NCBI GenBank assembly: GCA_023396915.1
Contig: JAEWUV010000007.1
Coordinates: forward strand, 82,077-146,076
DNA: 64,000 bases
Reading direction: 5' to 3'
Source of the DNA: Candidatus Parcubacteria bacterium
GTDB lineage: Bacteria; Patescibacteriota; Microgenomatia; UBA12405
Part shown: one piece after another, positions 12,190-60,241 of the stretch
How positions within the stretch are numbered: the first letter of the stretch is position 1
How the letters are laid out: each line of letters begins with the position of its first letter
Program-made: the position numbers and the translations under genes
The notes under the pieces: model-generated
Databases searched by the model: none
Seen by the model: only the letters and a program-made list of their open reading frames with translations
What the model was told of the DNA's origin: nothing

Positions 12190-12210
12190 TCAAGCCTGAT
12201 ACAATTAGTT

Positions 12211-21825: not shown

Positions 21826-22301
21826 AACGCAAGAAATTTCTCTCCATCTATTTACCCTTAATTTTTTCTTTGGGATTATTGGTTTTTTTTAGCCTCAGAA
21901 GTTACTCCAAAAAAAATTTTTCAAAAGAAAAATTCAATAATCTAATCTATACCACCTCTTCCACAAAAGATAAAACCAACGATTTGTGTAGATACCAAAT
22001 TTTAGGTGAACCGAAAGTAGAAAATAACTATATTAAAATAAATTTTTGGTGCCAAAACGGTACCAAAGCCAGAAGCACTTTGGCTTTGGAAGCCATTGAA
22101 AATAATTCAAATATCAATGGGATATTAAAAGAATATGCCCGAATTATAAATTTTGACTATTCTTTAATTCAAACAAATAATTGGTACTGTTTATTTAATG
22201 ATCAATTAATTACTGATTTTAATCAATCAATTGTGCCATCTGGCACCATTGATTGTTTTGAGAATAAAAATTTGTATCGTTATGATCAAAAAGAGCTTTA
22301 A
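21822..22301 (+). CDS. Hypothetical membrane-anchored protein
   Basis: 159 aa with one N-terminal TM helix and no recognisable domain. Overlap-coupled to its neighbours. Confidence 0.45.
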   Translation: MKRKKFLSIYLPLIFSLGLLVFFSLRSYSKKNFSKEKFNNLIYTTSSTKDKTNDLCRYQILGEPKVENNYIKINFWCQNGTKARSTLALEAIENNSNINGILKEYARIINFDYSLIQTNNWYCLFNDQLITDFNQSIVPSGTIDCFENKNLYRYDQKEL

Positions 22302-34216: not shown

Positions 34217-35865
34217 AAACAAAAATACTCCTCATTTTAATAATAATCGTCGGAGCTTTTCTGAGATTTTATAAATTAGGTACTTTGCCCAACTCATATT
34301 CTCCCGATGAATTATCCCAAGCTTATACCGCCTACTCAATTCTACAAACCGGCAAAGATGAGTGGGGGAACAGTAACTGGTTGAATTTACGTTCCTTTGG
34401 TGACTACAAACCACCCCTGCAAACCTTATTAATGATTCCTTCAGTTAAAGTTTTTGGATTAACCCCCTTCTCTGCTCGTTTTCCCAATGCTTTTTTATCC
34501 GTCTTTACTATTCTTCTGACTTATCTAATCGCTGATATCTTATTTAAAAACAAAAATATTTCTCTTGTAAGTGCCCTTTTTATATCCATTTCGCCCTGGG
34601 CCCTACCTATGTCTCGAATTGCCCTCGAAGCTAATTTATTAATCTTTATAATTTCACTGGCTTTTTATCTCTGTTTATTGGCCCAAAACAAAAATAATAG
34701 TTTATTTTTTATCTTATCAGCCATATTTTTTGGCCTCAGTCTTTTTACTTATCATTCAAGTAAAATTTTTACTCCATTATTTTTAATTCTTCTGATAATT
34801 TTTCAAAAAACTTATAGACAACCCAAAAAACTTGTTTTATTTTTAATAACTTTTTCTCTTTTCCTATTTACTCTGTTCTGGACTAACTCCCAAATCAAAA
34901 CTAACCGCACCGGAGACATTGCTATCTTTAATCCCACTGACAAATGGAGTTATGTTTCAAACAGCCAATTTGAAATCACTCAAAACGGATTACCTTATTT
35001 TTTAACCAAACCTTTCTACAATAAAATTACCTATTTATATGAAACTTTTAGCACAAGTTACCTTTCCTATTTTTCTCCCCAATTCTTACTTACTCAAGGT
35101 GCCGGCGAAACCACCTACGGTATGATTCCCGGATATGGAGTCTTAGGGTTGATTCCTTTCTTAGGTTTACTTTTTTGTCTGATTCTATTGATCCAAAAGA
35201 AAGTTACAAAAGATTCAAATAATATAATTTTTATATTTTTGGCCATCCTAATCCCTCCATCAATTGCCGCAATTGCCAAGGGCAGTTACTCTGCCAACAG
35301 AGTTTCTTTGATGACCCCCTTTATTCAAATTCTTTCTGCTGTTGGGTTAAGTTTTTTTATCAAAAATTTACCCCAAAAATTCCAAAAAATCTCCTATTCT
35401 ATATCTTTAATACTGTTTTTTAGTCTAAATAGTATCTTTTTAATCCGCTATTTTTATCAGGGTAATCAAATTCTAGCCGAAGGCATGCTCTATGGTCATA
35501 AACAAGCCAATGAATACATTCAATCCCATTCAGCATCACAAATTATTTACTCCCGAAAACTTTCAGAACCGCAAGCTTACGTCAGTTTCTTTAATCATAT
35601 AAATCCGCTCATCACTCAATCAGAATCTAGTAATTGGCTAGAATACCAAACCAAAGGCTTATCTTTTCTTGATCAATTGGGAGAATACAAATTAAGTAAT
35701 TTTATTTTTAGGGAAATTAATATTCCCAGTGACAGTCAACTTCCAAATACTCTTATTATTGGTCGCCCAGAAGAATTTAGGGATATCAAACCCGATTACA
35801 TTATTTATTATCCTAATCACTCTCAACTAAAACCGGCAATCTACATTTATCATACCAAAATATGA
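34213..35865 (+). CDS. ArnT/PMT-family GT-C glycosyltransferase, paralog 3
   Basis: LRFYKLGTLPNSYSPDELSQAYTAYSILQTGKDEWGN...FGDYKPPLQTLL. The ATGA stop/start overlaps the previous gene. Confidence 0.8.
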   Translation: MKTKILLILIIIVGAFLRFYKLGTLPNSYSPDELSQAYTAYSILQTGKDEWGNSNWLNLRSFGDYKPPLQTLLMIPSVKVFGLTPFSARFPNAFLSVFTILLTYLIADILFKNKNISLVSALFISISPWALPMSRIALEANLLIFIISLAFYLCLLAQNKNNSLFFILSAIFFGLSLFTYHSSKIFTPLFLILLIIFQKTYRQPKKLVLFLITFSLFLFTLFWTNSQIKTNRTGDIAIFNPTDKWSYVSNSQFEITQNGLPYFLTKPFYNKITYLYETFSTSYLSYFSPQFLLTQGAGETTYGMIPGYGVLGLIPFLGLLFCLILLIQKKVTKDSNNIIFIFLAILIPPSIAAIAKGSYSANRVSLMTPFIQILSAVGLSFFIKNLPQKFQKISYSISLILFFSLNSIFLIRYFYQGNQILAEGMLYGHKQANEYIQSHSASQIIYSRKLSEPQAYVSFFNHINPLITQSESSNWLEYQTKGLSFLDQLGEYKLSNFIFREINIPSDSQLPNTLIIGRPEEFRDIKPDYIIYYPNHSQLKPAIYIYHTKI

Positions 35866-37463
35866 AATCCAAACTTCCAATATTTTTTATTCTCATTTTA
35901 GGATTTATTCTCCGGATTATTTTTATCAACCAACTTCCGCCCAGTCCAAATTGGGACGAAGTCTCTCACGGATTTAACGCCTATTCAATTCTTAAAACCG
36001 GACATGACGAATGGGGGACTTTCATGCCTTTAATTTTCAGATGTTTTGGCGATTTTAAACTACCTTTATATATCTATTTAACCGTAATTTCGGTATTTTT
36101 ATTTGGCCTTAACACTTTCTCTGTCCGTCTTGTTTCAATTCTTGCCGGCACCCTTACCATATTTTTCATTTACCTCATTCTCAAAAAGATTTTACTTTAC
36201 CCGTCCGGCAGGCGGGCCAAAAATAATCTCATTCCCATTATCAGCGGCTTCATAGTTTGTCTTTCACCCGGTTCTATTTTTCTTTCCCGAATTGCTCTTG
36301 AAGCTAATCTATTTATGTGTCTTTTTCTAATATCCTTCTATTTTCTTTTATCCAAAAAATACGGCTTAAGCAGTTTTATTTATGGTATCAGTCTTTTTAC
36401 CTATAACAGTAGCCGTGTTTTATTACCCTTTTATTTAACCTGTCTAATTTACCTTTTAATAAAAAGCAAGGTTAAACCCCTAAAAGAATACTTAAAATTT
36501 ATCCCTTTTGTTTTATTATCGCTATTAGCCTTAGCTCAGACCTTAAATCAATCAGGTCAAGCTCGTTATCAATGGGTCTCTATTCTCGACTCCGGCTCGA
36601 TTAATCAGATAAACGAATTACGAGCTACTTATCCCCGAATTTTAGTCAACAAAGTTACCTATTTTACCTTTTCTGCTGTCAAAAACTACCTTAGTCATTT
36701 TAATCCCCAATTTCTTTTTATTAACGGTGGCTCCAACTACCAATTTAATATCCCGAATTTTTATCTAATTAGTCCATTATTTCTACCATTTTTAATATTG
36801 GGTTTAATTTATCTTTTTAAGACTATCAAAAATGACTATTCCAAGATAATCCTCTTTTTCTTTTTAATTTCTCCCATCCCTTCAGCCATTACTCGTGATG
36901 CTCCTCATATTTTACGAAGCATTGTATTTATTCCGTTTAGTATTATAACTATCTCCCTAGGATTTAGTTATTTTGTCAAAAAATTTAAAAAATTATCCTT
37001 AATTTATTTCTCCATCGCCCTTATTACTACCCAAATTTTATTTTGGCCAAAATATTTTACCTACGCCAAGCAATATTCTGCCTCTTGGCAATATGGTTAT
37101 TCTCAGGTGGTTTCGTATATCAAAACTAACTACAACAGTTACGATCAAATTATTTTTACCAAAAAATATGGCGAACCTCACGAATTTATTCTATTTTACT
37201 GGCCCTGGAACTCTGACAATTACCAACACGATACTTCTAAAAATTGGGATTATCACGCTAATTGGTATTGGATTAATGCTTTTAATAAATTCGTTTTCAT
37301 AAATGATTGGGAAATCAAAGGCTATACTCAAAATCTACCTTTAGACAAAAAAATACTTTTAGTTAGCTCTCCAAACAACTATAATCAAACTAACACTAAT
37401 CTTTTGCAAACCATCAATTTTTTAGATGGATCTCCTGCTTTTGAAATCCTGGAAATAAAATGA
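35862..37463 (+). CDS. ArnT/PMT-family GT-C glycosyltransferase, paralog 4
   Basis: NWDEVSHGFNAYSILKTGHDEWGTFMPLIFRCFGDFKLPLYIYL. ATGA overlap with the previous gene. Confidence 0.8.
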   Translation: MKSKLPIFFILILGFILRIIFINQLPPSPNWDEVSHGFNAYSILKTGHDEWGTFMPLIFRCFGDFKLPLYIYLTVISVFLFGLNTFSVRLVSILAGTLTIFFIYLILKKILLYPSGRRAKNNLIPIISGFIVCLSPGSIFLSRIALEANLFMCLFLISFYFLLSKKYGLSSFIYGISLFTYNSSRVLLPFYLTCLIYLLIKSKVKPLKEYLKFIPFVLLSLLALAQTLNQSGQARYQWVSILDSGSINQINELRATYPRILVNKVTYFTFSAVKNYLSHFNPQFLFINGGSNYQFNIPNFYLISPLFLPFLILGLIYLFKTIKNDYSKIILFFFLISPIPSAITRDAPHILRSIVFIPFSIITISLGFSYFVKKFKKLSLIYFSIALITTQILFWPKYFTYAKQYSASWQYGYSQVVSYIKTNYNSYDQIIFTKKYGEPHEFILFYWPWNSDNYQHDTSKNWDYHANWYWINAFNKFVFINDWEIKGYTQNLPLDKKILLVSSPNNYNQTNTNLLQTINFLDGSPAFEILEIK

Positions 37464-39094
37464 AATTTATAAAACAACCTAAAATTTTTCTAACCCTGAT
37501 TTTTTTTGTTTCCTTTTTAATTCGTTCCATTTTTATCTATAAAACCCCTCTTTTGTGGGACGAAGCCTCACTAGGTTACAACGCCTATTCAATTCTTCAA
37601 ACAGGAGGCGATGAATATGGCCAATTTTTACCTCTAATTTTCAAATCATTCGGTGATTACAAGCCCGGATTCTATGTTTATTTATGTCTTCCTTTTGTAA
37701 AACTTTTTGGGCTTAATTTATTCACTGTCAGACTCCCATCTATTTTAGCCGGATCTCTTTTACCTGTATTTCTTTATTTACTCATCAAAAAAATCAGTCC
37801 TAAGAGCCATAAAATTGCCCTTATTGCCGCCTTAGTTGCCACCTTTAACCCTTATAATATCCATTTTAGTAGGGGAGCCTGGGAAACTAATCTTCTCACT
37901 TGTGAATTGGTTTTAGCCGCTTACTTTTTCTATTCCTATCTTCAAAAACAAAAATCTAAATATTTATTTTTCTCTGCCTTAATTTTTGGTCTTTCTTTAT
38001 TTACCTATCAGGCCGGAAAAATGATTAGTCTTTTTCTTGTTTTAATTCTCCTTGCTCTTAACTACAAAAAACTTAGCCTCAAAAAGCTTTTTCTTAACTT
38101 TATCCTCCCTTTAGGAATATTAGCTTTACCTATCGCTTATGGTTTACTTTTTAACAGCAACAGTAATCGCCTCAAAGTAGTCAGTCTTTTTTCTTATCCT
38201 AGATCCGAAGCCGAAACACAGACTATTATTAGTGAAACAAATCAAGTAGATTACAATATTTTTTACAGTCAACCCATGTTTTTTATCCGTAACTTTCTTT
38301 CCCGCTACTTCAATCATTTTTCTCCAAAATTCTTAGCTTTTGAAGGCGACTGGCAAAATCCCCGACACTCAGCTCCTTACATTGGCGTTTTACTTTATCC
38401 TAGCCTTATCTTTCTCTTTATTGGTATTTTTTTTGCTCTAACTCATCTCAAAAAACAACCAATTAATCAGTTTTTTATCTTGTGGCTCTTAGTTTCTCCT
38501 ATCCCCGCTGCTCTCACTCGCGATTCTATTCAATCAGTCCGAGCTATGTCATTTTCTGTTCCTTTAGTCTATTTTATTTCCCTAGGCCTCTTTGCTTTTT
38601 TTGAAAAGTTTAAATCAAAATTAGTTTTATTAGCTATTTTAGTAGCCTATCTGGCCTCATTTATTTATTATGGTGATCTTTACCTAAATCATATGGTCAA
38701 AAAAGCCCCTTATGATTTTCTTTTTGGCTATCAACAAGCTATGGAATTTACTATAAAAAATCAAAATAAGTATCAAAATATCATCTTTACTGATTTTTAT
38801 GGTCAGCCTTATATTTTTTATCTTTTCTTTTCCCAATATTCGCCTCAAATTTATCAACAACAGGCCAATCTTTTAGAAAGTTCGCTAGATACCGGTAAGA
38901 TTGAGTCTTTAGATAATATCCGATTCAGAACACCTGACTTTGAAGCGGTCAAAAACACCCCAAACACCTTAGCTATTTTTTCTCAGGAAGAAATATACCG
39001 ACAGGGAATTGATAAAAAAGATGAATTTAAAAATTTTATTCCTCTAAGCCCAATTGGTAATATTTCTACCTTCTACGCCTATGAAAACCCTTAA
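37460..39094 (+). CDS. ArnT/PMT-family GT-C glycosyltransferase, paralog 5
   Basis: LWDEASLGYNAYSILQTGGDEYGQFLPLIFKSFGDYKPGFYVYL. ATGA overlap with the previous gene. Confidence 0.8.
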   Translation: MKFIKQPKIFLTLIFFVSFLIRSIFIYKTPLLWDEASLGYNAYSILQTGGDEYGQFLPLIFKSFGDYKPGFYVYLCLPFVKLFGLNLFTVRLPSILAGSLLPVFLYLLIKKISPKSHKIALIAALVATFNPYNIHFSRGAWETNLLTCELVLAAYFFYSYLQKQKSKYLFFSALIFGLSLFTYQAGKMISLFLVLILLALNYKKLSLKKLFLNFILPLGILALPIAYGLLFNSNSNRLKVVSLFSYPRSEAETQTIISETNQVDYNIFYSQPMFFIRNFLSRYFNHFSPKFLAFEGDWQNPRHSAPYIGVLLYPSLIFLFIGIFFALTHLKKQPINQFFILWLLVSPIPAALTRDSIQSVRAMSFSVPLVYFISLGLFAFFEKFKSKLVLLAILVAYLASFIYYGDLYLNHMVKKAPYDFLFGYQQAMEFTIKNQNKYQNIIFTDFYGQPYIFYLFFSQYSPQIYQQQANLLESSLDTGKIESLDNIRFRTPDFEAVKNTPNTLAIFSQEEIYRQGIDKKDEFKNFIPLSPIGNISTFYAYENP

Positions 39095-40697
39095 AAAACT
39101 TATCTTACCATTAATTTTAACTATCGCTTTCTTAATCCGAGGTATTAGTATCAACAGCACTCCGGCCTTAAACCCTGACGAAGCCGCTTTAGGTTACAAT
39201 GCCTACTCGTTGATCAAAACCGGCAAAGACGAACACGGGATTTCTTGGCCGCTTCATTTCAAATCATTTGGTGATTATAAACCCGGGGGTTATGTCTACT
39301 TAGATATTCCTTTCATTTACCTATTCGGCCTAAAAACTTTTGCTGTCCGTCTTCCCAATTTAATCCTCTCCATTTTAACTATTTTATTTTTATACAAACT
39401 TGTTTTGCTACTTACCAAAAACTATTTACTATCAGACTTAACCGCTTTTGTTTTAGCGGTCAGCCCTTGGCATATCCACTTCAGTCGAGGAGCCTGGGAA
39501 AGTTCAGCAGCACTTTCTTTTATAGTTATTGGTACCTATTTCTTCTTCAAATCAATCTCAGAAAAATTTTATAAAAATTTCACCCTATTTATTATCTTTT
39601 ATATTTTTTCTCTTTATATTTACCATTCTGCTCGGCTTATTGCGCCTCTTCTAGCCTTAAGCTTGATTATTTTATATTTCAAATTTCTTATTAAAAAATT
39701 ACCCAAATTAATTTTGCCCCTAATTTTGGGTGTTTTATTAGCAATACCTGTTTTATATTCATTTTTAAATAATGGCGGTACCACCCGTATTGGCGGAGTC
39801 GGGTTAACTGCTGATCCGGGGCCAGCTAGTCGCTCCGAAGAACTTCTCAATCAACACCAAGGTGTCAAATTAATTAATCGGGTTATGCATAACAAACGGG
39901 TTTTATATCTCATTTCTTGGGGTGAAAAATATTTTTCCCACTTCGATCTTAATTTCTTAGCCATCAATGGCGATGAGGTTCCTCGATCCAAAGTTCCTGA
40001 AATGGGTCAAATTTATATCTTCGAAATTCCATTTTTAATTTTAGGCATCATATTTTTAATCAAATCTAACTTATTTAGCTCAAAATCAAAAATTTTTATC
40101 TTTCTTTTCCTTTTTATCGCCCCGATTGCTTCCTCCTTAACCTTCCAAGCCCCGTCTGCCCTTAGAAGCCTGGCCATGGTCATTCCACTTTCAATTTTTA
40201 TTTCTTGTGGTATTTTTTATTTTTTCCAACTTACTAAACAAATTAAAATCAAAAAAACTATCTTAATTATATTTGGATTATTTTATCTTTATTCAATTTC
40301 TTATTACTTTGATTCTTATTTCCTTCACTACGCCAAACGTTATCCCTTTGCTTGGCAATATAAATTTGATGAATTAGTCCCTTGCCTCGAACAGGAAAAA
40401 ACAAATTACCAAAATATTTATATCACCAATAAATACGATCAACCCTATATCCTTTTCCTTTTCTTTTCCCAATATCCGCCAACTCAAATTCAATCTCAAA
40501 TCAAACTATCAGAACCTGACCAGTTTGGTTTTTCTACTGTTAATAACTACGATAACTATTATTTTGGTAAAATTAATTGGGATAACATTCCCACAGGTTC
40601 TTTGGTAGTCGCTTCTGACGAAAGCATACCGGAGTTACCTTTTAAAACTATTTACTTTAGTAACGGGCAAGCTGCTTTTAAAATTTATAAAAAATAA
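39081..40697 (+). CDS. ArnT/PMT-family GT-C glycosyltransferase, paralog 6
   Basis: LNPDEAALGYNAYSLIKTGKDEHGISWPLHFKSFGDYKPGGYVYL. ATG at 39081; the ORF track gives 39054. Confidence 0.8.
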   Translation: MKTLKKLILPLILTIAFLIRGISINSTPALNPDEAALGYNAYSLIKTGKDEHGISWPLHFKSFGDYKPGGYVYLDIPFIYLFGLKTFAVRLPNLILSILTILFLYKLVLLLTKNYLLSDLTAFVLAVSPWHIHFSRGAWESSAALSFIVIGTYFFFKSISEKFYKNFTLFIIFYIFSLYIYHSARLIAPLLALSLIILYFKFLIKKLPKLILPLILGVLLAIPVLYSFLNNGGTTRIGGVGLTADPGPASRSEELLNQHQGVKLINRVMHNKRVLYLISWGEKYFSHFDLNFLAINGDEVPRSKVPEMGQIYIFEIPFLILGIIFLIKSNLFSSKSKIFIFLFLFIAPIASSLTFQAPSALRSLAMVIPLSIFISCGIFYFFQLTKQIKIKKTILIIFGLFYLYSISYYFDSYFLHYAKRYPFAWQYKFDELVPCLEQEKTNYQNIYITNKYDQPYILFLFFSQYPPTQIQSQIKLSEPDQFGFSTVNNYDNYYFGKINWDNIPTGSLVVASDESIPELPFKTIYFSNGQAAFKIYKK

Positions 40698-46813: not shown

Positions 46814-47802
46814 ATATTATTATTCCCACTTACAACGGTTCTAAATGTATAACCGAAACTCTCAAGAGTATTCTTTCCCAATCTTTCAAAAACTTCCGGA
46901 TAATTATTTGCGATGATGCTTCAACCGACAATACTCTCAAAACAATCAAAAAAATAAAAGATAAAAGAATTTTAATCAAAAGTCATAAAAAAAATCTAGG
47001 TTACTCATTAAATCTAGAACGTGGTCGACATTACACCAAAGCCCCAATTATTTATCTAATGGGTCAAGACGACATAATGGCCAAAGATGCTCTCAGAAAC
47101 ACTCTTAAGGCCTTTAAATTATCCTCTGATATCGGCGCTGTCACTAGACCATATTATTGGTTTGATAAAAATATCAATACCCCTGTTCGGGCCAAAAAAC
47201 AATTAAATCCCAAAAAAGACACTATCGTAAAAATCACCAACAGTCCCCAAAAAGTTATTCGCGTTTTTGAAACTTTAGACCAACTTTCAGGATTAGCCTA
47301 CAGAGCCAAATTTATGAAAACTCCTTTTCATCCGGATATTTTCCCTTGTCATATTTACCCATTTGCCGATATTTTTAGAAACCACCCCGTAGTTTTCCTA
47401 AAAGACTACAATATTGCTGTTCGTATCGCCAGCAGTCAAACCAGAAGTCTGTCCTCTATCTATAACAAATCACCACTTTTAAGCTGGATTGAAATGGTCA
47501 AGTCTGTCTACTCAAAAAAAAGATACCAAAAAATCCAAAAATATTTAGTCAAAAATTTTATTACCAAAAATTATGTTGGCTTGGTTCAACTCAGAAACTA
47601 CGCCAAATATAAATATTTAGTCAGAGAAATTTGGTATTTGCTTAAATTTAATTGGCAAAATCTATTTTCTTTCCAATTTTGGTTTTTCTCTGTCGGCTGT
47701 TTATTAACTCCGTCTTTTATTCTTATCCCCATGGTCGACTGGTACAAAAACAAAATATATTCCCAAGCCTTAACCAACATTAAGTTTAGTTTTAAACTAT
47801 GA
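46801..47802 (+). CDS. GT2 glycosyltransferase
   Basis: IDIIIPTYNGSKCI...ICDDASTDNT...MGQDDI. 333 aa. Confidence 0.8.
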   Translation: MATIDIIIPTYNGSKCITETLKSILSQSFKNFRIIICDDASTDNTLKTIKKIKDKRILIKSHKKNLGYSLNLERGRHYTKAPIIYLMGQDDIMAKDALRNTLKAFKLSSDIGAVTRPYYWFDKNINTPVRAKKQLNPKKDTIVKITNSPQKVIRVFETLDQLSGLAYRAKFMKTPFHPDIFPCHIYPFADIFRNHPVVFLKDYNIAVRIASSQTRSLSSIYNKSPLLSWIEMVKSVYSKKRYQKIQKYLVKNFITKNYVGLVQLRNYAKYKYLVREIWYLLKFNWQNLFSFQFWFFSVGCLLTPSFILIPMVDWYKNKIYSQALTNIKFSFKL

Positions 47803-48821
47803 ACCTACTCCGATGGCTCAAAAACCTAACCGAAACTAATCAGTTTATTTCATCTACTTTTGACAAAATAGCCTCAACCTCTTTATACACAAACATTATT
47901 CAAAATAAAATCAATCAAAACATCTCTAGTCTCAAAAAAAACCGAAACTACAACATCATTATAGAAACAACCAACCTTTGCAATGCTCAATGTATTATGT
48001 GCCCTCACACTACCATGAAACGGTCCAAAGAAATAATGACCGAAAACACCTTTAATATTATTATTGATAAGCTCACTCAAGAAAACATTAACCCTCAAGT
48101 TTTTATCCTTAATGGTTTTGGAGAACCACTTACCGATCCAACAATTTTTAGCCGAATCCAAAAAATAAAAACCACCTTTCCCGATTCAAAAATCAAATTA
48201 TATTCGAATTTAAATTTAGCTAACAAAAAAACAATTCAACGACTTATTAACTCACAACTAGATGAAATTAATGTCAGCTTAAATGGATATAATGCCAAAA
48301 ATTATCAAGAAGTGATGAAACTTGATTACAAAAAAACAATCAAAAACCTTAAAACATTAATTAATATTAAAAATAAAATAAATTCCAAATTAAAAATCAG
48401 AATTTCCATGACATTAGTCAAACAAAACGAAAAAACAGTCAAAAAATTCATCAAAAAATGGAGTTCTCTGGTTGACTCTGTCAGTGTCAATAAAGTTCAT
48501 GATTATAACGGCAGTGTCAAAAATATCACCAACAAATTTAAAATTAATTTTAATAAAAAGACTTTTCCGTGTAGATATTTGTGGGATACGATTACCTTTG
48601 ATGTTAACGGGGAAGTTATTTTATGTTGCCTGGACTATGAATCTCAATATAAATTTGGGAACATTAAATCACAATCAATCAAATCTATTTTCTATTCACC
48701 AAAGTTTAATTTAATTAGGAAACAACATCTCAATTTAAATTCAAAAAAAATTAAAATTTGCCGTCAGTGTTACACTCCATATAAAAATGGAGTTGAATGG
48801 TTATTAAAAAAAATATACTAA
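47799..48821 (+). CDS. Radical SAM / SPASM-domain protein
   Basis: Canonical CNAQCIMC (Cx3Cx2C) cluster plus the GFGEPL SAM-binding motif. The C-terminus carries extra Cys residues (FPCRY...VILCCLDYE...KICRQC) consistent with a SPASM/twitch auxiliary-cluster domain. Confidence 0.75.
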   Translation: MNLLRWLKNLTETNQFISSTFDKIASTSLYTNIIQNKINQNISSLKKNRNYNIIIETTNLCNAQCIMCPHTTMKRSKEIMTENTFNIIIDKLTQENINPQVFILNGFGEPLTDPTIFSRIQKIKTTFPDSKIKLYSNLNLANKKTIQRLINSQLDEINVSLNGYNAKNYQEVMKLDYKKTIKNLKTLINIKNKINSKLKIRISMTLVKQNEKTVKKFIKKWSSLVDSVSVNKVHDYNGSVKNITNKFKINFNKKTFPCRYLWDTITFDVNGEVILCCLDYESQYKFGNIKSQSIKSIFYSPKFNLIRKQHLNLNSKKIKICRQCYTPYKNGVEWLLKKIY

Positions 48822-49963
48822 TGAAAATAGGTCTAGTTTATCACCAATTTCCTCTTTATGCTGGTGGCTCGCATATCCAAGATTTCATCGTCTCATTATC
48901 TAAAAATAAACAAATTCAAAATATCACCTTAATCGCCAAACACTATCCAAAAGTTCCTATTAAACTTCCCAAAAAGATAAAAATAATTTTCATTCCAAAT
49001 ATAAAGATTCCCATATTAGACGATTTATTTTTCATAATATCCTCTTTTTTTGCCATGCTTTTTTCTTCTGATTTTCGAAAGTCTGATTTGGTAAATGTTA
49101 TTTGTGCTCGCGGCATCCCTTCATCATTCCTTTTTACTAAAATTTTTAAAAAACCTTTAATTGCCACCATAGAAATATTAAATGACCCAAAAAACAATCC
49201 ATCACTTTCCAGTAAGGTATCTTACTTTGTTCAAAAATTTTATTACTCAAAAATTCGATTTAATAAAATCATTTGTTGGGCTAAATTTTATTACCAAAAA
49301 TATCTTAAAAAATGGGGGATTGATAAAAATAAAGTTTCTTTTATTTCAAATGGAATCAACACTAGCCAATATCATCCTAAAATTTCAGGCAAACAAATTA
49401 AATACAAATACTCTCCCCATAATCCTCTTATTGTTTTTGCCAAACCACTTTATAAATACAACTTTTTGTCGGTAAAACTTTTGCTTTCTGTTGTTAAAAA
49501 ACTCAAAGACGCCAACTATCCAATTCATTTATTGCTCGGCAAAGGAAAATATCTACCCCAGACTCAAAACATAATTAAAAAATTAAAAATTAAAAAGTAT
49601 GTTTCTTTTATGCCTTTTGTTCCTATGACCGAAATTCCCAAATACATTGCCGCTTCGGATATTATGGTTTTACCTTATCTTTACCACCCCACAGTTTCTC
49701 GTTCACTTTTAGAAGCCATGAGTACCGGAAAAGCCATTCTTACATCAAATTTAGGCGAAATTCCCTATGTTTTAACCCACCAAAAAGACGCAATTGTAAT
49801 TAAACCGACTGTTAATAATTTAGTTAAAAACATTAAATATCTTTTAAAAAATCCAGATATTGCCAAACAATTAGGCAAAAATGCCAGAATTAAATGTCAA
49901 AAGCTATATTCCTTTGATAAAATTAGCAAAGATACTGTTAACTTATATCAAAAAATAGAATGA
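48821..49963 (+). CDS. GT4 (GT-B) glycosyltransferase
   Basis: A TAATG junction starts it at 48821. The C-terminal SRSLLEAMSTGKAIL region is GT4-like. 380 aa. Confidence 0.7.
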   Translation: MKIGLVYHQFPLYAGGSHIQDFIVSLSKNKQIQNITLIAKHYPKVPIKLPKKIKIIFIPNIKIPILDDLFFIISSFFAMLFSSDFRKSDLVNVICARGIPSSFLFTKIFKKPLIATIEILNDPKNNPSLSSKVSYFVQKFYYSKIRFNKIICWAKFYYQKYLKKWGIDKNKVSFISNGINTSQYHPKISGKQIKYKYSPHNPLIVFAKPLYKYNFLSVKLLLSVVKKLKDANYPIHLLLGKGKYLPQTQNIIKKLKIKKYVSFMPFVPMTEIPKYIAASDIMVLPYLYHPTVSRSLLEAMSTGKAILTSNLGEIPYVLTHQKDAIVIKPTVNNLVKNIKYLLKNPDIAKQLGKNARIKCQKLYSFDKISKDTVNLYQKIE

Positions 49964-50604
49964 AAACTTCGGTTATAAATAAAATCAGACATAGTATTGA
50001 ATATTATCGTTTCCATGTTTCATCCAAATTACCGCCATTTTTAAAGCATTATATTTCCAAGTTTCGATTTAAACCTCAAATAGCCAAGGGTGGAACTATT
50101 TATGGCTATACCGTATTCGGACCAAATGTTTCCATCGGAGAATATTCATATCTTCATTCCCCAGTCAGGCTTAGTAATATAAAAATCGGCAAGTTTTGTT
50201 CTATTGCCCAAAACTTCACCGCCATTAGTCATCGTCATAAATACGAAAATTTTTTCAATTATAAATTTTATAATGAAACAAACTCCCCATTTTCCTCAAA
50301 ATTTTATAAAAAACCAGAAGAGGTAAATATTATTAAACCTATCACTATCGGTAATGATGTTTATATTGGTTACAATGTAACAGTTCTTGGAGGGGTAAAA
50401 ATCGGAAACGGCTCTATTATCGCCGCCAATTCATTAGTTAACAAAAATGTGCCACCATACACTATTTATGGGGGAGTTCCGGCAAAATTTATTAAAAATA
50501 AAAAAATCAAAGACAAAGAAATAAAAAATTTTGATTTTAATCAAAAAGATTATTTAACAAAATTAGAAAAACTTCTCAAAAAACTCTATGCGACTGCTGG
50601 TTAA
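49960..50604 (+). CDS. Hexapeptide-repeat (left-handed beta-helix) O-acetyltransferase
   Basis: Repeats IGKFCSIAQNFTAI...IGNDVYIGYNVTVLGGVKIGNGSIIAANSLV. The size and architecture match the CatB/Vat/WbbJ group. Confidence 0.8.
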   Translation: MKTSVINKIRHSIEYYRFHVSSKLPPFLKHYISKFRFKPQIAKGGTIYGYTVFGPNVSIGEYSYLHSPVRLSNIKIGKFCSIAQNFTAISHRHKYENFFNYKFYNETNSPFSSKFYKKPEEVNIIKPITIGNDVYIGYNVTVLGGVKIGNGSIIAANSLVNKNVPPYTIYGGVPAKFIKNKKIKDKEIKNFDFNQKDYLTKLEKLLKKLYATAG

Positions 50605-54493: not shown

Positions 54494-55471
54494 TTATTTT
54501 ATCAAATTAACCACTAATTTTATCAAATCATCTTTTTCTCTCGGGTTACTGGTAGCAATCAACAAAGCCAAAGCCACCAAAGCTCTGTCACTAATTTTAT
54601 TTTCTCCTATATTATTTTTTAGTATTCTGTTTTGATTTAAATAATAAACAAACAAAGTTGAACCGATTCGCTTATTACCATCAACAAAAGGGTGATCTTT
54701 AATCACCATATAAAGTAAATTAGCTGCCTGTTCTTCCACACTACTATACAAATATTTACCATCAAAAGTCTGATTAATGGCGCCAATTATTCCATTTAAA
54801 TTATTAACTCCATTTTCCTGACCAAAATTAACAGACAACTTTTTACCAAAATTTAGTTTTATCCCATTAATAAAACTAATTACTTCATCATAAGTCAAAA
54901 CATATCTGACTTTTTTAGTTAAACCATCAAGTTTTAATTTATGGTCATCATATTGAGTCAATAAATAAATCGAGTTGGTATAATCTGAAATTAAACTAAG
55001 TAAAGAATCAGTTTCCGACCTTAACTGACTAATTTTTGATTTTGAAGTTACAAAATCAACTGTCTTCTTAAAATCTTCAAAAATCTTCCTTTGTTCTAAA
55101 ATTCTTTTTTTGTTTACAGCATAACCTTTGACTAAATAATTTCGTAATACCTTGGTCGCCCATATACGAAATTGAGTACCCTGTATGGATTTCACCCTAT
55201 ATCCGACAGAAATTATTACATCAAGATTATAAAAATTAGTTAAATAAGTCTTTCCATCATCGGCAGTTATCCGGAATTTCCGGATAACTGAGTTCTCAAA
55301 TAATTCACCCTCAATAAAGATATTTTGTATATGTTCGTTAATAGTTCTAATGTCTTTATCAAACAAATCAGCCATTTGTTTTTGTGTTAACCACACAGTT
55401 TGACCATCAAAACTAACTTTTAAATCAATATTCCCTTTAGAAGACTTGTATAAAACAATCTTGTTATTCAT
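54494..55471 (-). CDS. RhuM-family N-terminal domain fused to a Doc/Fic-type toxin domain
   Basis: N-terminus IVLYKSSKGNIDLKVSFDGQTVWLTQKQMADLF...FYNLDVIISVGYRVKS is typical of RhuM-family proteins. The C-terminus carries HPFVDGNKRIGS, which matches the Doc-type Fic motif HxFx(D/N)GNKR. Confidence 0.7.
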   Translation of the reverse strand: MNNKIVLYKSSKGNIDLKVSFDGQTVWLTQKQMADLFDKDIRTINEHIQNIFIEGELFENSVIRKFRITADDGKTYLTNFYNLDVIISVGYRVKSIQGTQFRIWATKVLRNYLVKGYAVNKKRILEQRKIFEDFKKTVDFVTSKSKISQLRSETDSLLSLISDYTNSIYLLTQYDDHKLKLDGLTKKVRYVLTYDEVISFINGIKLNFGKKLSVNFGQENGVNNLNGIIGAINQTFDGKYLYSSVEEQAANLLYMVIKDHPFVDGNKRIGSTLFVYYLNQNRILKNNIGENKISDRALVALALLIATSNPREKDDLIKLVVNLIK

Positions 55472-55489: not shown

Positions 55490-56305
55490 ATGCTAAACTA
55501 TTCTATGCTTTCTTTAATCAAAGAAACCAAGGCAATCTATAAGTGGCGTGAATTATTGTGGCAAATGGTTGCCCGCGAAGTTAAAGCCCGTTACAAACAA
55601 TCAATTTTAGGCTATTTTTGGGTTATTTTAAATCCGTTAGCTCAGATGTTAGTTATGAGTTTTGCCTTTTCTATAATTTTACGTATTCCCACTAACGCCG
55701 CCGGTAATATTCCTTATTCAATTTTCTTATTTGTTGCCCTTCTTCCTTGGACACTTTTTTCCAATTCATTATCATCTGCCACCGGATCGCTAGTCTCTTC
55801 CGGTAGTTTGATTACTAAAATATATTTCCCCCGAACCATACTGGTAATATCTACTATTTTTTCCAAGATCATCGACTTTATCTTTGCCAATTCCATTCTT
55901 ATTATTTACATGATTATTTATCATATTCCGATCAATTGGAACATACTCTGGGTTATCCCCATATTTATTATCCAGCAAATTTTTACCCTAGGTCTTTCTC
56001 TTTTCTTTTCTGCTGCCAATTTACTTTACCGTGATATTCAATATCTTTTAAACATGATTTTACTTTTATGGCTTTATGCCACCCCCATTATTTATTCTGC
56101 CGATGCCATTCCATCAAAATACAAAATCATTTTTCAACTAAATCCCATGGCAGTTATTACCAATGCCTATCGTCAGGTCGTTTTGGGTGGGGGAGCACCA
56201 AAATACTCCAGTCTTGCCATAGGTCTTCTTGTTTCTTTTATTGTCTTGTTTATAGGCTTTAAGTACTTCAAATCTCGCGAAAAAATCTTTGCTGATAATA
56301 TATAA
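55490..56305 (+). CDS. ABC-2 type polysaccharide/teichoic-acid exporter permease (Wzm/TagG-like)
   Basis: 271 aa with 6 TM. N-terminus ELLWQMVAREVKARYKQSILGYFWVILNPL is characteristic of ABC-2 Wzm/TagG permeases. Confidence 0.8.
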   Translation: MLNYSMLSLIKETKAIYKWRELLWQMVAREVKARYKQSILGYFWVILNPLAQMLVMSFAFSIILRIPTNAAGNIPYSIFLFVALLPWTLFSNSLSSATGSLVSSGSLITKIYFPRTILVISTIFSKIIDFIFANSILIIYMIIYHIPINWNILWVIPIFIIQQIFTLGLSLFFSAANLLYRDIQYLLNMILLLWLYATPIIYSADAIPSKYKIIFQLNPMAVITNAYRQVVLGGGAPKYSSLAIGLLVSFIVLFIGFKYFKSREKIFADNI

Positions 56306-56307
56306 CT

Positions 56308-56652
56308 ATGTCCATTCTAAAAATAGACCATAAACCAACAAAAAAGGAAATGATTATCCTTACCCAAGAATACCCACAATATATAAAACTGTCTGCAGAT
56401 TTAAAACAAGATATTTTATATGGTGGCAGTCGGCTTCATTATGAATGTGAACAAGAATTAATTCACAAAGAAAATTCCAAAAATGAAAATATTTGGAACG
56501 GTGGAATTAATTTAACCAATAAAAAAATAGAATATACCGCTGTGGCCAACATCAAACCATCCGCCGACAATCCGGGACTTGAAATTCTTAATCCCGATAA
56601 TCGGGAAAAGTTTAAAACAATTGTTAAAAAATATTTTCCAGAATATGACTAA
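56308..56652 (+). CDS. Hypothetical protein (114 aa)
   Basis: ORF with host-like AT-rich composition. No recognisable motif. Lies between the ABC permease and ATPase genes. Confidence 0.4.
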   Translation: MSILKIDHKPTKKEMIILTQEYPQYIKLSADLKQDILYGGSRLHYECEQELIHKENSKNENIWNGGINLTNKKIEYTAVANIKPSADNPGLEILNPDNREKFKTIVKKYFPEYD

Positions 56653-56917
56653 TAAAACATACCAAAATTATATGAATTTAATTAGTGATTCCTATCGTGG
56701 AATCTACGAACTCGTTGATCCAAAAATCGGCAATAACAGTTTTTTTGTCAAAAATTATCTAAAAAATATTACCTTAATTACCAATAAATTTCCAAAATAT
56801 AAAAAAACATTAAAAATAAAAGAAATTTCCTCACAAAAAACAGAACCAAAAATAAAAGCTGAATATCTCTTAGATAATAACCGAACCATTCTGGATTTTA
56901 TATCTAAAAACATATAA
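56645..56917 (+). CDS. Hypothetical protein (90 aa)
   Basis: Starts at an internal ATG overlapping the previous ORF by 8 nt; the ORF track gives 56579. No recognisable motif. Confidence 0.35.
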   Translation: MTNKTYQNYMNLISDSYRGIYELVDPKIGNNSFFVKNYLKNITLITNKFPKYKKTLKIKEISSQKTEPKIKAEYLLDNNRTILDFISKNI

Positions 56918-56927
56918 GACCAAAAAA

Positions 56928-57020
56928 AACACCCCCAGACCTAGAACCGAAACAAAAAACTACAGCAAAGCGCGCTGCGGCATCTTGTTTCGGTCCTTCA
57001 GCCTGTTTTTATGGGGTGTT
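56928..57020. terminator. Nested GC-rich palindrome between convergent stop codons (bidirectional terminator)
   Basis: Outer arms: AACACCCCC (56928-36) and GGGGTGTT (57013-20). Inner arms: ACCGAAACAA (56946-55) and TTGTTTCGGT (56985-94). Central CAGC-aaagcgc-GCTG hairpin. Flanked by A- and T-runs. Confidence 0.6.
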
Positions 57021-57456
57021 ATTTTTCTTTCGGTAGCGCAATGGGTATGCCATGGTCGGCAAGACTCGTTTTGAAGAAATGAGTCCTTCCTTCGTCATGT
57101 GATTGCCGATTGAAATCTTCTTTTTTTACTTTTTCGAAAGATACAACCTTCCAATCAGATTCCTCAGAAGAACCCACCTTATAAACAACGCGGACGTAAA
57201 CTTCCTCTTGGCACCCCTCCTCTTGGAAAGACCAAATAAATTTGGCTATGCCCTCTGCTTCGGCTTCAGGAGACGGGGGAGAAACTCTCCTTAAAATAGC
57301 TTCTCCCAAAGGAAAATCAGTTTTCCATCTCTGCATTTCTTTGATTTTCCTTTTCATCCAATCATAAAAAATGCGTGCCTGCTCTTCACTCGTTATTCCC
57401 GGAGTCCCTCTTCTTAAGTTTAGAAAAAAAATAACCTCCGTGACAACTGCGTTCAC
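57019..57456 (-). CDS. Hypothetical protein (145 aa), compositionally atypical (higher GC, fewer Lys/Asn/Ile)
   Basis: ORF with visibly higher GC than its surroundings. No recognisable motif. Possibly horizontally acquired. Confidence 0.45.
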   Translation of the reverse strand: MNAVVTEVIFFLNLRRGTPGITSEEQARIFYDWMKRKIKEMQRWKTDFPLGEAILRRVSPPSPEAEAEGIAKFIWSFQEEGCQEEVYVRVVYKVGSSEESDWKVVSFEKVKKEDFNRQSHDEGRTHFFKTSLADHGIPIALPKEK

Positions 57457-57728
57457 AAAATCAATCTCCTATTTTTAGTATTTCCATCTACACCATGCGC
57501 TTTATGGTGAACGGAAAACTAACTCCAAAATATTTAGAATCAATTTTCCATTCACCATTTTTTTAATGTGCCTTTCTTTAAAATACCAAAACTGCTTATA
57601 GCTTTTTCTTTTAAAGGAACGCCCTAATTCTACCAAAAAACCCCTTATTAGTCAATAATTATAGGATATATTTTAAACTAATTAATCAAGCTTTTCTTAA
57701 AAAATGTTAAACTTCTCTATATATTCTT

Positions 57729-58457
57729 ATGTCTAACCCAACAGTCATAAAATTCAACCACGTTACTAAACAATTTAGTAAATTAAGTCAAAAAACTTTC
57801 AAAGAGTTTTTACCAGCCCTTTTCCGTGGCGAAAAAACTATCGAAAGCTTCAAAGCCTTAGACAATATTTCTTTTGAAATCAAAAAAGGGGAGACTATCG
57901 GCATCATCGGCCCCAACGGTAGTGGTAAATCTACTATCCTAAAGCTCATTGCTGGCGTTATGTCACCCAACAGTGGTACTGTAACCGTTCATGGCAACGT
58001 TTCGCCCCTTATCGAACTAGGTGCCGGCTTTCACCCAGAGCTTACCGGCCGAGAAAACATTTATTTAAACGGCTCCATTTTGGGTCTCAAGCGCAAAGAA
58101 ATTACCAAAAATCTTCAATCAATTATTGATTTTGCCGAATTACAGGAATTTATAGATCAGCCGGTCAAACATTATTCTTCCGGCATGTACATGCGTCTTG
58201 CCTTTGCTGTCGCCGTCCACACCCATCCGGAGATCCTTATTGTTGACGAAATCCTAGCAGTAGGGGATACCGCCTTTCAAAAAAAATGCTTTGCCAAAAT
58301 GGAAGAGTTCCAAAAATCAAAAGAGGTCACCACCGTCTTCGTCTCACATGATATGACTAAAGTTAAATCTTTCTGCACTCGTTGCATCTATATAGACCAA
58401 CACAAAATCCAAGCCGACGGTCAACCAAAACCCACTATCCAAAAGTATCAGAAATAA
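57729..58457 (+). CDS. ABC exporter ATP-binding protein (Wzt/TagH-like, short form without C-terminal carbohydrate-binding module)
   Basis: Walker A GPNGSGKST, signature YSSGMYMRL, Walker B ILIVDE. The N-terminus (VIKFNHVTKQF...LDNISFEIKKGETIGIIG) is typical of TagH/Wzt. 242 aa. Confidence 0.85.
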   Translation: MSNPTVIKFNHVTKQFSKLSQKTFKEFLPALFRGEKTIESFKALDNISFEIKKGETIGIIGPNGSGKSTILKLIAGVMSPNSGTVTVHGNVSPLIELGAGFHPELTGRENIYLNGSILGLKRKEITKNLQSIIDFAELQEFIDQPVKHYSSGMYMRLAFAVAVHTHPEILIVDEILAVGDTAFQKKCFAKMEEFQKSKEVTTVFVSHDMTKVKSFCTRCIYIDQHKIQADGQPKPTIQKYQK

Positions 58458-58468: not shown

Positions 58469-60241
58469 CTATTCTTTTACCGGATAAATTAATTGAAATA
58501 CTGCATCATCGTCTTTTTCCAACACTCCGTCAATCAACAAATTACCATCAGAATATGAATTAGATTTAGAATAGACCAAAGATAATGGTGTCTCCACCTC
58601 TTCAACACTTGGTTCAACCGTAAAACAATATTCCTTCCCTTCAGAGTCTTTTAATTCATTAAATAAGACTTCACGATATTCATAGTCTGTGATTTTTTCA
58701 ACGCTAATTGGTGTTTCCAAAATTTTTGTTTTACAATCAGCTTCATACAATTTCAGGCTATAAGGAGTAGCTACTTTCTTTCCGTTTCCGTAAGTCGCAA
58801 AAAACACATTTATTCCCTTTAAATTATTCTTTGGAGACTTAAAAGTTTGATAATAGATATTAGAATCATCAATTTTTCCCACTAATTCATTTCTAGATAT
58901 TAATCCCAAATCATACCAATCAACATCCTTTCTATTTCGCAAATAATTCATTCCTACCACATAAACAAAACAAATTAGTAAGTAAATAAACAAAGGTAAA
59001 AGTGAAAAATATTTTATTTCTTTTTCAATCAAATCATTCTTTTTTTTCTCAAAAAACAAAATGTAAATATATGCTAAAAATGCCGCAAAAAATAAACTAT
59101 AAATAATACTAAAAAATTTAAAATCAGGAAAATAAGTCGAAATAAAATCTCCTAAAGGAATAATTTTATTAATCATCGGGAAACTGACCGAAAATAAATT
59201 CATATCAATGTTTCTTGACCATGAAAACAGACTAATAAAAAAACAAAAAAGAATCAGACAATATAAATAAAACAACCTTCTGTCTTTGTAAACAGTTAAT
59301 ACAAAAAATGGCATAATCCACAAAAACCAATGAGGGATAAAAAAAGAAGCTAAATAAAACAAGGATAAAATCAAAAAACAATATTTAGTTAAAACCTCAT
59401 TTTTATTATCATCATTAACATCTTGTTTAAAAAACAAAAAGAAAACTATCAAAAAATAAAATAAAGGAAATAGTAATGGGCCATTTAAAATATTTCTTTG
59501 AAGAATAAACAATCCTTCACCTCCACCAGTCACAAAAGTATGAGCCACTTCATAAAAAATCATATAGGGAATTAAATAAACCACTGCAGACACTAGACAA
59601 TAAATAATTGTTTTTTTTACATTTTTATTTGCCAAAATAACAGCAGCAGGTAGTACTAAAAATACAGCATAATTCTTCATCGCCATAGACAACCCCAAAA
59701 AAATCATTGCCCAAATATTCTTTTTCTTAAAAGCAAATAACAAAAATAACAAAGAAAAAAACATCGGATAAATATCATTATTTCCCCAAGCAAATGGCAC
59801 AAAGATTAAAACTGGGCAGAGTAACCACAAAAGAAAAATTTTATTTATATCCTTAAAATCTTTTATATGGCTTTTAACTAACCCACCCACCAAAAACAAA
59901 GCTAATATAAACAAAACTAAATACCTCAATTTCAATAAAAAGCTGACCAATACTAGTTGATCTGTAGTAATTTCGTTCATTAAATCAAACTTGTAAATTC
60001 CCAATTTCTGAAATGGAAAATACAATAAACCATCTATCAAATGAAAAACCGGTGGAAAAAATGAAGAATAAGTTAATCCTCTCTCTGCAGTTTCAACTTT
60101 GAGACTAAGATCACCATTGGCAATTCTAGCAGAATTAACAGCAACATTAACTAAATCAGAATGATAAGTAAACTTAGAGATAATCAAAACAATTCCAATT
60201 ACAAAAATTATCCAAAACCAATATTTTTTAAATATTTTCAT
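58469..60241 (-). CDS. Large polytopic membrane protein with C-terminal extracytoplasmic domain (unknown function, candidate glycan-processing enzyme)
   Basis: 590 aa. About 12 TM in the first 430 aa, then a soluble C-terminal domain of about 150 aa. Confidence 0.45.
   Translation of the reverse strand: MKIFKKYWFWIIFVIGIVLIISKFTYHSDLVNVAVNSARIANGDLSLKVETAERGLTYSSFFPPVFHLIDGLLYFPFQKLGIYKFDLMNEITTDQLVLVSFLLKLRYLVLFILALFLVGGLVKSHIKDFKDINKIFLLWLLCPVLIFVPFAWGNNDIYPMFFSLLFLLFAFKKKNIWAMIFLGLSMAMKNYAVFLVLPAAVILANKNVKKTIIYCLVSAVVYLIPYMIFYEVAHTFVTGGGEGLFILQRNILNGPLLFPLFYFLIVFFLFFKQDVNDDNKNEVLTKYCFLILSLFYLASFFIPHWFLWIMPFFVLTVYKDRRLFYLYCLILFCFFISLFSWSRNIDMNLFSVSFPMINKIIPLGDFISTYFPDFKFFSIIYSLFFAAFLAYIYILFFEKKKNDLIEKEIKYFSLLPLFIYLLICFVYVVGMNYLRNRKDVDWYDLGLISRNELVGKIDDSNIYYQTFKSPKNNLKGINVFFATYGNGKKVATPYSLKLYEADCKTKILETPISVEKITDYEYREVLFNELKDSEGKEYCFTVEPSVEEVETPLSLVYSKSNSYSDGNLLIDGVLEKDDDAVFQLIYPVKE

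Follow-up and report, generated by a model that had tools for sequence, protein, structure and literature searches.

Radical SAM gene and operon

A 64,000-nucleotide stretch of DNA from a Candidatus Parcubacteria bacterium (contig JAEWUV010000007.1, positions 82,077 to 146,076 of the forward strand; called the window below, GC content 32%) was analyzed around one gene, the open reading frame (ORF) at 47799-48821 on the forward strand, whose product is a radical S-adenosylmethionine (SAM) enzyme with a C-terminal auxiliary-cluster domain. The ORF encodes 340 aa, begins with ATG and overlaps by 4 nt the stop of the upstream gene, which encodes a family 2 glycosyltransferase (GT2). Its product was matched above cut-off by Pfam Radical_SAM (PF04055; 39.5 bits, cut-off 29.5, residues 55-218) and by Pfam SPASM (PF13186; 54.7 bits, cut-off 21.5, residues 258-325, 67 of 67 model positions). 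The sequence CNAQCIMC occupies residues 61-68, and only five Cys lie beyond it (C258, C276, C277, C321 and C324). Homologues in the protein catalogue numbered 163, the majority exactly 340 aa long and with identities from 99% down to ~30%, so the ORF is not a chance one. Homologue and profile searches of the same catalogue returned generic database names for family members ("radical SAM/SPASM domain-containing protein"), and the product fell below every curated cut-off of the named radical SAM families (TIGR04317, TIGR04311, TIGR04321, NF033640 and others). No transmembrane (TM)-like or hydrophobic segment was predicted; the enzyme is classed as soluble and is therefore expected to act in the cytoplasm.

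The gene sits in a run of 19 co-directional genes, abutting or overlapping; around it the order is GT2, GT4, GT2, GT2, B12-type radical SAM, GT2, GT2, the gene under study, GT4, left-handed beta-helix (LbH) hexapeptide acyltransferase and GT4. The B12-type gene ends 2.0 kb upstream of its start. A preliminary description, made from the sequence, had placed a radical SAM enzyme with CNAQCIMC in exactly this ORF, inside a glycosyltransferase operon and within 4 kb of a second radical SAM gene, and all of this was borne out. Non-coding gaps longer than 60 nt were sought from 26024 to 56917 and none was found; small ORFs around the gene all lie inside longer genes. A precursor-peptide gene near the enzyme is thereby excluded, in line with the earlier remark that none was obvious. 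Pfam likewise detected no recognition element (RRE) of peptides made by the ribosome and modified after translation (RiPPs) and no PqqD domain in the enzyme or its neighbours, and Pfam scans of the window genes gave no sulfatase, protease or RiPP transporter near it.

In an alignment of 70 homologues the invariant columns were C61, N62, A63, C65, C68, G108, N137, S160, Y169, C258, C276, C277, D279, C321 and W334. The family signature reads CNAxCxxCPH, then C-X12-G-X4-CCxD[YF], then CX2C at the C-terminus. Within GFGEPL, which we take from general knowledge of the superfamily to be its "GGE"-type SAM-binding motif, G108 is invariant, and G106, F107 and P110 are conserved in at least 90% of the aligned homologues. 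The N-terminal extension is weakly conserved; in many distant orthologues the match does not begin until residue ~53-55.

Auxiliary-cluster domain

The SPASM signature is CX9-15GX4C-gap-CX2CX5CX3C-gap-C and corresponds to two clusters; the Twitch domain is its shortened version, with one. Read from the sequence and from the secondary structure of an AlphaFold2 model, the C-terminal domain of the enzyme runs from C258 through a beta-hairpin (strands 264-267 and 272-274) to C276, and then through helices to C321-X2-C324. It thus holds the first four SPASM Cys, placed before and after the hairpin and, as CX2C, past the helix. The C-terminus follows 16 residues after C321-X2-C324, with no further Cys. 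The seven-Cys motif of full SPASM was sought in the enzyme and in 57 orthologues and was not found. The pattern C-X12-G-X4-C-C-x-D-[YF]...CX2C is whole in 55 of these 57 orthologues (species-representative genomes of more than 10 phyla), and the tail past CX2C is 4-18 residues long, which makes a second cluster site impossible. A full SPASM domain holding a pair of auxiliary clusters was accordingly ruled out, with five C-terminal Cys in place of seven or eight and a short tail. On its sequence the C-terminal domain is a Twitch domain with one predicted auxiliary cluster. The preliminary description had called this region Cys-rich and SPASM- or twitch-like: the auxiliary-cluster type stands, with the twitch alternative and not full SPASM, and the Cys number only five.

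The Cys pair at the end of the hairpin is constant. C277 is invariant in all 70 aligned homologues, and the doublet C276-C277 occurs in 57 of 57 genomes of more than 10 phyla.

Relatives and predicted structure

A single-sequence search of PDB sequences returned BtrN as the sole match (E 1e-7), with Twitch Cys aligned on Cys. With a family profile BtrN again came first (E 2e-26, 96 bits), ahead of BlsE (5e-8), glycerol dialkyl glycerol tetraether (GDGT)/macrocyclic archaeol synthase (7e-7), and then NifB, anSME, SkfB and DesII (6e-6), with EpeE at ~2e-4. The interval between 2e-26 and 5e-8 marks BtrN as a specific relative, not merely the generic best match. An AlphaFold2 model built from the family alignment (pLDDT 95.6, pTM 0.93) contained the partial TIM-barrel of the superfamily as six beta strands in six beta/alpha units. 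Foldseek searches of the PDB with this model gave 166 matches at E <= 0.001, of which the best 50 were all radical SAM enzymes. BtrN was at the top (E 1.7e-15, TMt 0.77), BlsE and DesII came next, and SuiB, CteB, anSME and EpeE followed. The C-terminal Cys, whose failure to align with cluster ligands would have told against the preliminary description, fall on the Twitch ligands of the solved BtrN structure. In the structural comparison that it had proposed, BtrN, BlsE and DesII rank above the peptide maturases.

BtrN (2-deoxy-scyllo-inosamine dehydrogenase of the butirosin pathway; PDB 4M7T and 4M7S) is a Twitch enzyme whose auxiliary cluster, ligated by four Cys, is the proposed electron acceptor in the two-electron oxidation of an aminocyclitol, a carbohydrate-like small molecule. 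It shares with the enzyme the radical SAM core and the Twitch domain, in which its four Twitch Cys align with C258, C276, C321 and C324. Past the CX3CX2C motif both proteins have CPxxxxKR, and three residues beyond the post-hairpin Cys both have an Asp (D279 here), whereas sequence alignments put a Phe of BtrN at the position of C277. The enzyme is ~90 aa longer than BtrN; its 48-aa helical N-terminal extension has no BtrN counterpart in the alignment, which begins at residue 52. The settings also differ, with a 2-deoxystreptamine antibiotic cluster around BtrN and a cell-surface glycan operon in Candidate Phyla Radiation (CPR) and DPANN genomes here; 2-deoxy-scyllo-inosose (2-DOI) synthase and DegT-type transaminase genes were sought in the operon and not found. 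Orthology to BtrN as a 2-deoxy-scyllo-inosamine dehydrogenase was therefore rejected: the two are homologous (E 2e-26), but share 15-17% identity, stand in different contexts and differ by the extra elements.

BlsE (cytosylglucuronate decarboxylase) and DesII (dTDP-4-amino-4,6-dideoxyglucose deaminase), radical SAM enzymes that act on nucleoside- or nucleotide-linked sugars, form a second tier, far weaker than BtrN and similar over the radical SAM core only (residues 51-168 and 60-206, respectively). NeoN (neomycin) and HygY (hygromycin B) are Twitch radical SAM enzymes that epimerize sugars, inverting an unactivated stereocentre of a sugar within an already assembled glycoside. They come, unlike the present family, from actinomycete antibiotic clusters. 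Their H-atom donor is a non-ligand Cys, C249 in NeoN and reportedly C183 in HygY; invariant C277 is a candidate counterpart in the Twitch region of the present family. The title of a paper on HygY states that a single-Cys mutation turns a Twitch epimerase into a dehydrogenase. In anSMEcpe, D277 directly follows ligand C276 and is, as we take it, the proposed catalytic base facing the substrate; if so, C277 of the present enzyme would lie in the active site.

Among peptide enzymes, anSME, SuiB, CteB and PqqE resemble the enzyme in radical SAM core, beta-hairpin, first auxiliary-cluster site and Pfam SPASM match, but they carry the full seven-Cys motif and a second cluster, both of which it lacks. 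EpeE (YydG) is a Twitch-type peptide epimerase whose extended Twitch domain holds one auxiliary cluster and whose non-ligand Cys C223 quenches the substrate radical. Its substrate, however, is a ribosomal peptide encoded alongside it, and its sequence match is weak.

Distribution and neighbourhoods of the family

The family was traced through 185,579 species-representative genomes, in which 423 loci were found. The nearest are in Shapirobacteria and Microgenomates, followed by Woese-, Pace- and Nanoarchaeota, Firestonebacteria, Planctomycetota, Deltaproteobacteria, Zixibacteria, Auribacterota and others. Immediate neighbours (112 genes) were counted in 58 of the 423 loci, and genes within four positions on either side (±4) were clustered in 57. 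The immediate neighbours included 19 GT4, 11 GT2 and 8 GT9 genes, 18 class-I methyltransferases, 5 radical SAM genes and 5 hexapeptide acyltransferases. Within ±4 genes, GT2 was present in 36 loci, GT4 in 25 and either in 39, the last from CPR, DPANN, Planctomycetota, Deltaproteobacteria and others. A class-I methyltransferase, small and generic, was found in 21 of the 57, often directly adjacent. Conserved UDP-glucose dehydrogenase or amino-sugar genes were not found among the immediate neighbours in the 58 loci or within ±4 genes in the 57.

Further radical SAM genes recur around the family. Relatives of the B12-type gene lie within ±4 genes in 21 of the 57 loci (CPR, DPANN, Sedimentisphaerales, Rhodospirillales, Zixibacteria and Auribacterota). 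Another gene cluster, present in 10 loci, is likewise radical SAM and includes six shorter paralogues (266-381 aa, 25-31% identity to the enzyme) with the same PCCxD[YF] and C-terminal CX2C. By their sequences these paralogues suggest a broader "CC-Twitch" clade in which a single glycan locus holds several specificities. With the two types taken together, another radical SAM gene lies at most four genes away in 26 of the 57 loci. The B12-type partner in the window was matched by Pfam Radical_SAM (63 bits) and, under the cut-off, by B12-binding (22.5 bits against 32.1). Its NCBIfam matches were far under cut-off (HpnJ, 133 bits against 578; BchE; a ladderane lipid B12-type radical SAM family), and its PDB matches were 9ccb at best and the diol-dehydratase AprD4 second. 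Cobalamin synthesis is not, to our knowledge, expected of CPR organisms.

Individual loci repeat the arrangement. In L001 a 71%-identical orthologue is syntenic, including the upstream B12-like radical SAM gene, with an LbH gene directly upstream and a small methyltransferase gene directly downstream. Microgenomates locus L004 and Patescibacteria locus L005 show the same glycan theme, with one to three B12-type radical SAM genes. A Pacearchaeota orthologue (38% identity) stands amid GT4, GT2, methyltransferase, polysaccharide deacetylase and flippase genes. In Firestonebacteria (L027-L029) the orthologue lies between a NodS-like methyltransferase and an FGGY-family sugar kinase, a carbohydrate-related setting, with two ABC ATPase genes upstream. 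A QueC-family PP-loop ATPase recurs in five DPANN glycan loci (cluster c8), L025 (6437-7141) among them, at a distance of two to four genes from the Twitch gene; for a family of the queuosine pathway the setting is unexpected. At 6188-10561 of L007, a 34%-identical homologue is followed by methyltransferase, formyltransferase and dehydroquinate (DHQ) synthase/iron-containing alcohol dehydrogenase-like genes. The DHQ synthase-like gene, seen near this distant homologue only, is reminiscent, by analogy with the 2-DOI synthase that accompanies BtrN, of aminocyclitol or formylated amino-sugar pathways. In Spirochaetota (L002 and L015) the homologue, at 8001-9026 of L002, follows a MatE gene near MerR, MFS, alcohol dehydrogenase and nitroreductase genes, and a second radical SAM/SPASM gene (385 aa) lies 5 kb downstream. 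Four loci (L008, L009, L012 and L013; 66-69% identity) come from TPA_asm metagenome-assembled genome records labelled "uncultured Gammaproteobacteria"; they are syntenic with Shapirobacteria locus L010, so the labels are probably wrong.

Proposed reaction and alternatives

The enzyme is probably a Twitch radical SAM enzyme that tailors a sugar. We infer a sugar substrate from the relationship to BtrN, BlsE and DesII together with the conserved glycan context, and the earlier preference for a carbohydrate was in this way upheld, with glycan neighbours in many phyla and a recurrent second radical SAM gene; its suggestion of novel sugar chemistry stands as a hypothesis. More tentatively, it may be a sugar epimerase in which C277 returns the H atom, by analogy with NeoN C249, HygY and EpeE C223. 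With the same reserve, the complete proposal is that of a cytoplasmic BtrN-like enzyme that tailors a sugar of the cell-surface glycan made by the surrounding operon. In this proposal the [4Fe-4S] cluster at C61, C65 and C68 would cleave SAM reductively, as expected from superfamily membership, and the 5'-deoxyadenosyl radical would take an H atom from an unactivated sugar carbon of a nucleotide- or polyprenyl-linked glycan intermediate. C277, a putative non-ligand next to predicted ligand C276, would then give an H atom to the opposite face and leave the epimerized sugar, while the auxiliary [4Fe-4S] cluster (C258, C276, C321 and C324) would help to re-reduce the C277 thiyl radical. An epimer is favoured because Twitch epimerases use such a Cys, because by the title of the HygY paper one of them becomes a dehydrogenase on mutation of a single Cys, because BtrN, a dehydrogenase, is without it, and because a universally conserved keto-sugar-consuming partner, sought within ±4 genes in the 57 loci, was not found, which fits a self-contained epimerase.

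Several observations weigh against this proposal. C277 instead of C276 may ligate the cluster, or may be a spare ligand, and the donor Cys of NeoN stands in a D-C-Y context as opposed to C-C-x-D-Y here. The low identity to BtrN, the six-stranded predicted core and the N-terminal extension set the enzyme apart from its closest relative, which we take to be without either of the last two. About a third of the sampled loci have no GT2 or GT4 within four genes, and the Spirochaetota homologue (50% identity) stands beside a MatE gene with no glycan genes, a setting for which horizontal transfer or another role might account. The NCBIfam scan returned no model at cut-off, the best being TIGR04317 with 89 bits against 380.

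A radical dehydrogenase of the BtrN type is the main rival, though an unlikely one: the substrate radical would be deprotonated and its electron passed to the Cys4 auxiliary cluster, leaving a keto-sugar for another enzyme to reduce, C-methylate or aminate. BtrN is by far the closest characterized relative, its auxiliary cluster is Cys4-ligated through the Cys that align here, D279 matches its Asp, and the class-I methyltransferases in 21 of 57 loci could be read as consumers of the product. Such a dehydrogenase would, however, leave invariant C277 without a role at a position where BtrN has Phe. It also meets no universal keto-consuming partner; the neighbouring methyltransferases are class-I enzymes of a small, generic kind, and the sole DegT-family gene in the window is RfbH, 11 kb off on the other strand. 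Another redox-neutral or reductive radical reaction on a sugar (uronic acid decarboxylation as by BlsE, deamination or dehydration as by DesII or AprD4, or C-C bond formation, possibly with the B12-type enzyme) is improbable. BlsE and DesII are the best sequence and structural matches after BtrN, AprD4 is the second PDB match of the partner, and a second radical SAM gene recurs, B12-type in 21 loci and of any type in 26; yet the BlsE and DesII similarity is core-only and ~18 orders of magnitude below that of BtrN, and neither UDP-glucose dehydrogenase nor amino-sugar genes are a conserved feature of the surroundings.

A lipid in place of a sugar, namely a polyprenyl carrier or glycolipid anchor, is a very improbable substrate. 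The locus is rich in polyprenyl-phosphate-dependent glycosyltransferases of the GT-C fold, the partner's best NCBIfam matches are lipid-associated (HpnJ and ladderane lipid families, far under cut-off), and GDGT/macrocyclic archaeol synthase is a weak match of the enzyme itself (E 7e-7); but that match spans the generic core only, the enzyme is soluble with no hydrophobic segment, and its specific relative BtrN is a small-molecule sugar enzyme. The least probable reading is that of a peptide or protein maturase, whether it matures RiPPs or, like anSME, activates a protein of the glycan machinery. It would account for the Pfam SPASM match and for the best NCBIfam matches, which are "maturase" families, all far below cut-off; SuiB, CteB, anSME and EpeE are among the Foldseek matches, and Twitch-type peptide enzymes are known (SkfB and EpeE). 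Its RiPP form was rejected, with no room for a precursor gene between 26024 and 56917 and no RRE, the N-terminal extension being three helices and not a winged-helix RRE. Against a maturase of either kind stand the lack of a sulfatase, protease or RiPP transporter nearby, the absence of the full SPASM motif, and neighbours that across phyla are glycan enzymes.

Other features of the window

The coordinates of the features described here are collected in Table 1.

Table 1. Positions of the radical SAM gene, its motifs and associated features. Coordinates refer to the window unless a locus is given.
Feature	Position	Strand	Basis
Twitch-domain radical SAM enzyme gene	47799-48821	+	ORF, Pfam, AlphaFold2 model
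N-terminal three-helix extension, residues 1-48	47799-47942	+	AlphaFold2 secondary structure (helices 3-13, 15-25, 28-48)
CX3CX2C motif C61/C65/C68 (CNAQCIMC), predicted SAM-cleaving [4Fe-4S] cluster	47979-48002	+	Sequence; invariant in 70 of 70 aligned homologues
GFGEPL motif, residues 106-111	48114-48131	+	Sequence; aligns with YGEPL of BtrN
Twitch Cys scaffold C258-X12-G271-X4-C276 ... C321-X2-C324, one predicted auxiliary [4Fe-4S] cluster	48570-48770	+	Pfam SPASM; BtrN Cys alignment
CC doublet: C276, predicted cluster ligand; C277, extra Cys, candidate H-atom donor; then invariant D279	48624-48629	+	Invariant columns
B12-type radical SAM enzyme with B12-binding-like N-terminal domain, 496 aa	44310-45800	+	Pfam
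19-gene co-directional operon, genes abutting or overlapping	28686-51739	+	ORF coordinates, Pfam, gap analysis
LbH hexapeptide-repeat acyltransferase, nearest Vat/CatB/WbbJ O-acetyltransferases	49960-50604	+	Pfam, NCBIfam
ABC-2 permease (55490-56305) and ABC ATPase (57729-58457)	55490-58457	+	Pfam ABC2_membrane, ABC_tran
Second, shorter CC-Twitch paralogues in other loci	L033:12953-13930, L059:7288-8115, L064:7962-8876, L073:3481-4329, L068:9038-9838, L081:6697-7842		

The window is one very large cell-envelope glycan region. Its first 9.9 kb (1-9.9 kb) hold a release factor, an LCP-family ligase, FtsEX, a GT2 gene and a GT-C gene, and further GT2, GT4 and GT-C (PMT_2) genes lie at ~17-28 kb. 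The operon contains seven GT-C (PMT_2-type) paralogues, a protein with 8-9 TM-like segments and no Pfam match, a GT2 gene at 30461-31261, the two radical SAM genes, further GT2 and GT4 genes and the LbH gene. On its 3' side lie a tetratricopeptide repeat (TPR) membrane protein, a YvcK/CofD-like protein, the ABC-2 permease and ABC ATPase, a GT87-like gene, the RfbH equivalog, UDP-galactopyranose mutase and a GT2 gene. In syntenic CPR loci (L001, L004, L009, L012, L013, L016 and L017) an LbH gene lies immediately upstream of the Twitch gene.

Large polytopic proteins (about 12, with 7-13 TM-like segments, most of them PMT_2/PMT, that is GT-C) are encoded at 8410-17092, 22231-25301 and 28686-40697. 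Many are mutual paralogues (26-35% identity), forming an unusually large GT-C array for one region; the ORFs at 10552-17092, which have many TM-like segments, were left out of the Pfam scan. Three further paralogues of ~440 aa with 8-9 TM-like segments had no Pfam or NCBIfam match (26024-27352, +; 27309-28631, -; 31225-32556, +) and may be O-antigen polymerase- or ligase-like proteins or a novel membrane glycan enzyme.

ABC-2 permease and ATPase genes are also found near the orthologue in L001 and L005. Judged from their domain types, the two in the window would export glycan in the manner of Wzm/Wzt, in which case the polymer would be assembled in the cytoplasm; a cytoplasmic Twitch enzyme fits such ABC-transporter-dependent assembly. 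A RhuM/Fic-domain gene (54494-55471, -) adjoins the exporter genes, and three small ORFs lie between permease and ATPase (DUF5674, 56308-56652; unannotated, 56579-56917 and 57019-57456). They look like an insertion, since the two exporter genes are adjacent in syntenic L001.

At 60228-62650 on the reverse strand, the RfbH equivalog (CDP-4-keto-6-deoxyglucose 3-dehydrase, 611 bits against 423) stands beside UDP-galactopyranose mutase, and the pair therefore implies a 3,6-dideoxyhexose and galactofuranose in this CPR glycan; the remaining genes of the dideoxyhexose pathway were not seen inside the window. RfbH is the sole DegT-family gene of the window and not a transaminase partner. A trio of oxidation, transamination and acetylation (Twitch dehydrogenase, DegT and LbH) was considered and rejected: the DegT-family gene is this 3-dehydrase, on the other strand and 11 kb off, and the LbH protein resembles O-acetyltransferases.

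Implications

Judged by its sequences, the family is an uncharacterized, widespread subfamily of BtrN/NeoN/HygY-type Twitch enzymes with a clear signature and a conserved link to glycosyltransferases and other radical SAM enzymes. A literature search for a characterized SPASM or Twitch enzyme in a surface-glycan pathway returned annotation-level mentions only. For annotation, "radical SAM/SPASM" genes of this type are not to be read as RiPP maturases. The gene itself will not surprise a specialist, but the recurrent glycan module with several radical SAM genes in CPR and DPANN is a worthwhile and testable lead.

These uncultured organisms have a minimal metabolism, and it is through their surfaces that they live as episymbionts. 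As a speculation that we hold as doubtful, CC-Twitch enzymes may be a widespread toolkit with which CPR, DPANN, Planctomycetota and others tailor primary cell-envelope glycans by radical chemistry, often with B12-type radical SAM enzymes and small methyltransferases and sometimes as tandem paralogues, acting at unactivated sugar carbons (epimerization, oxidation or C-methylation) of an assembled or lipid-linked glycan. We know of such chemistry at unactivated sugar carbons so far only from antibiotic pathways. If the toolkit exists, the surface sugars of these organisms would not be predictable from their minimal nucleotide-sugar metabolism, and a type of reaction found in aminoglycoside and nucleoside antibiotic pathways would extend to primary cell-surface biosynthesis.

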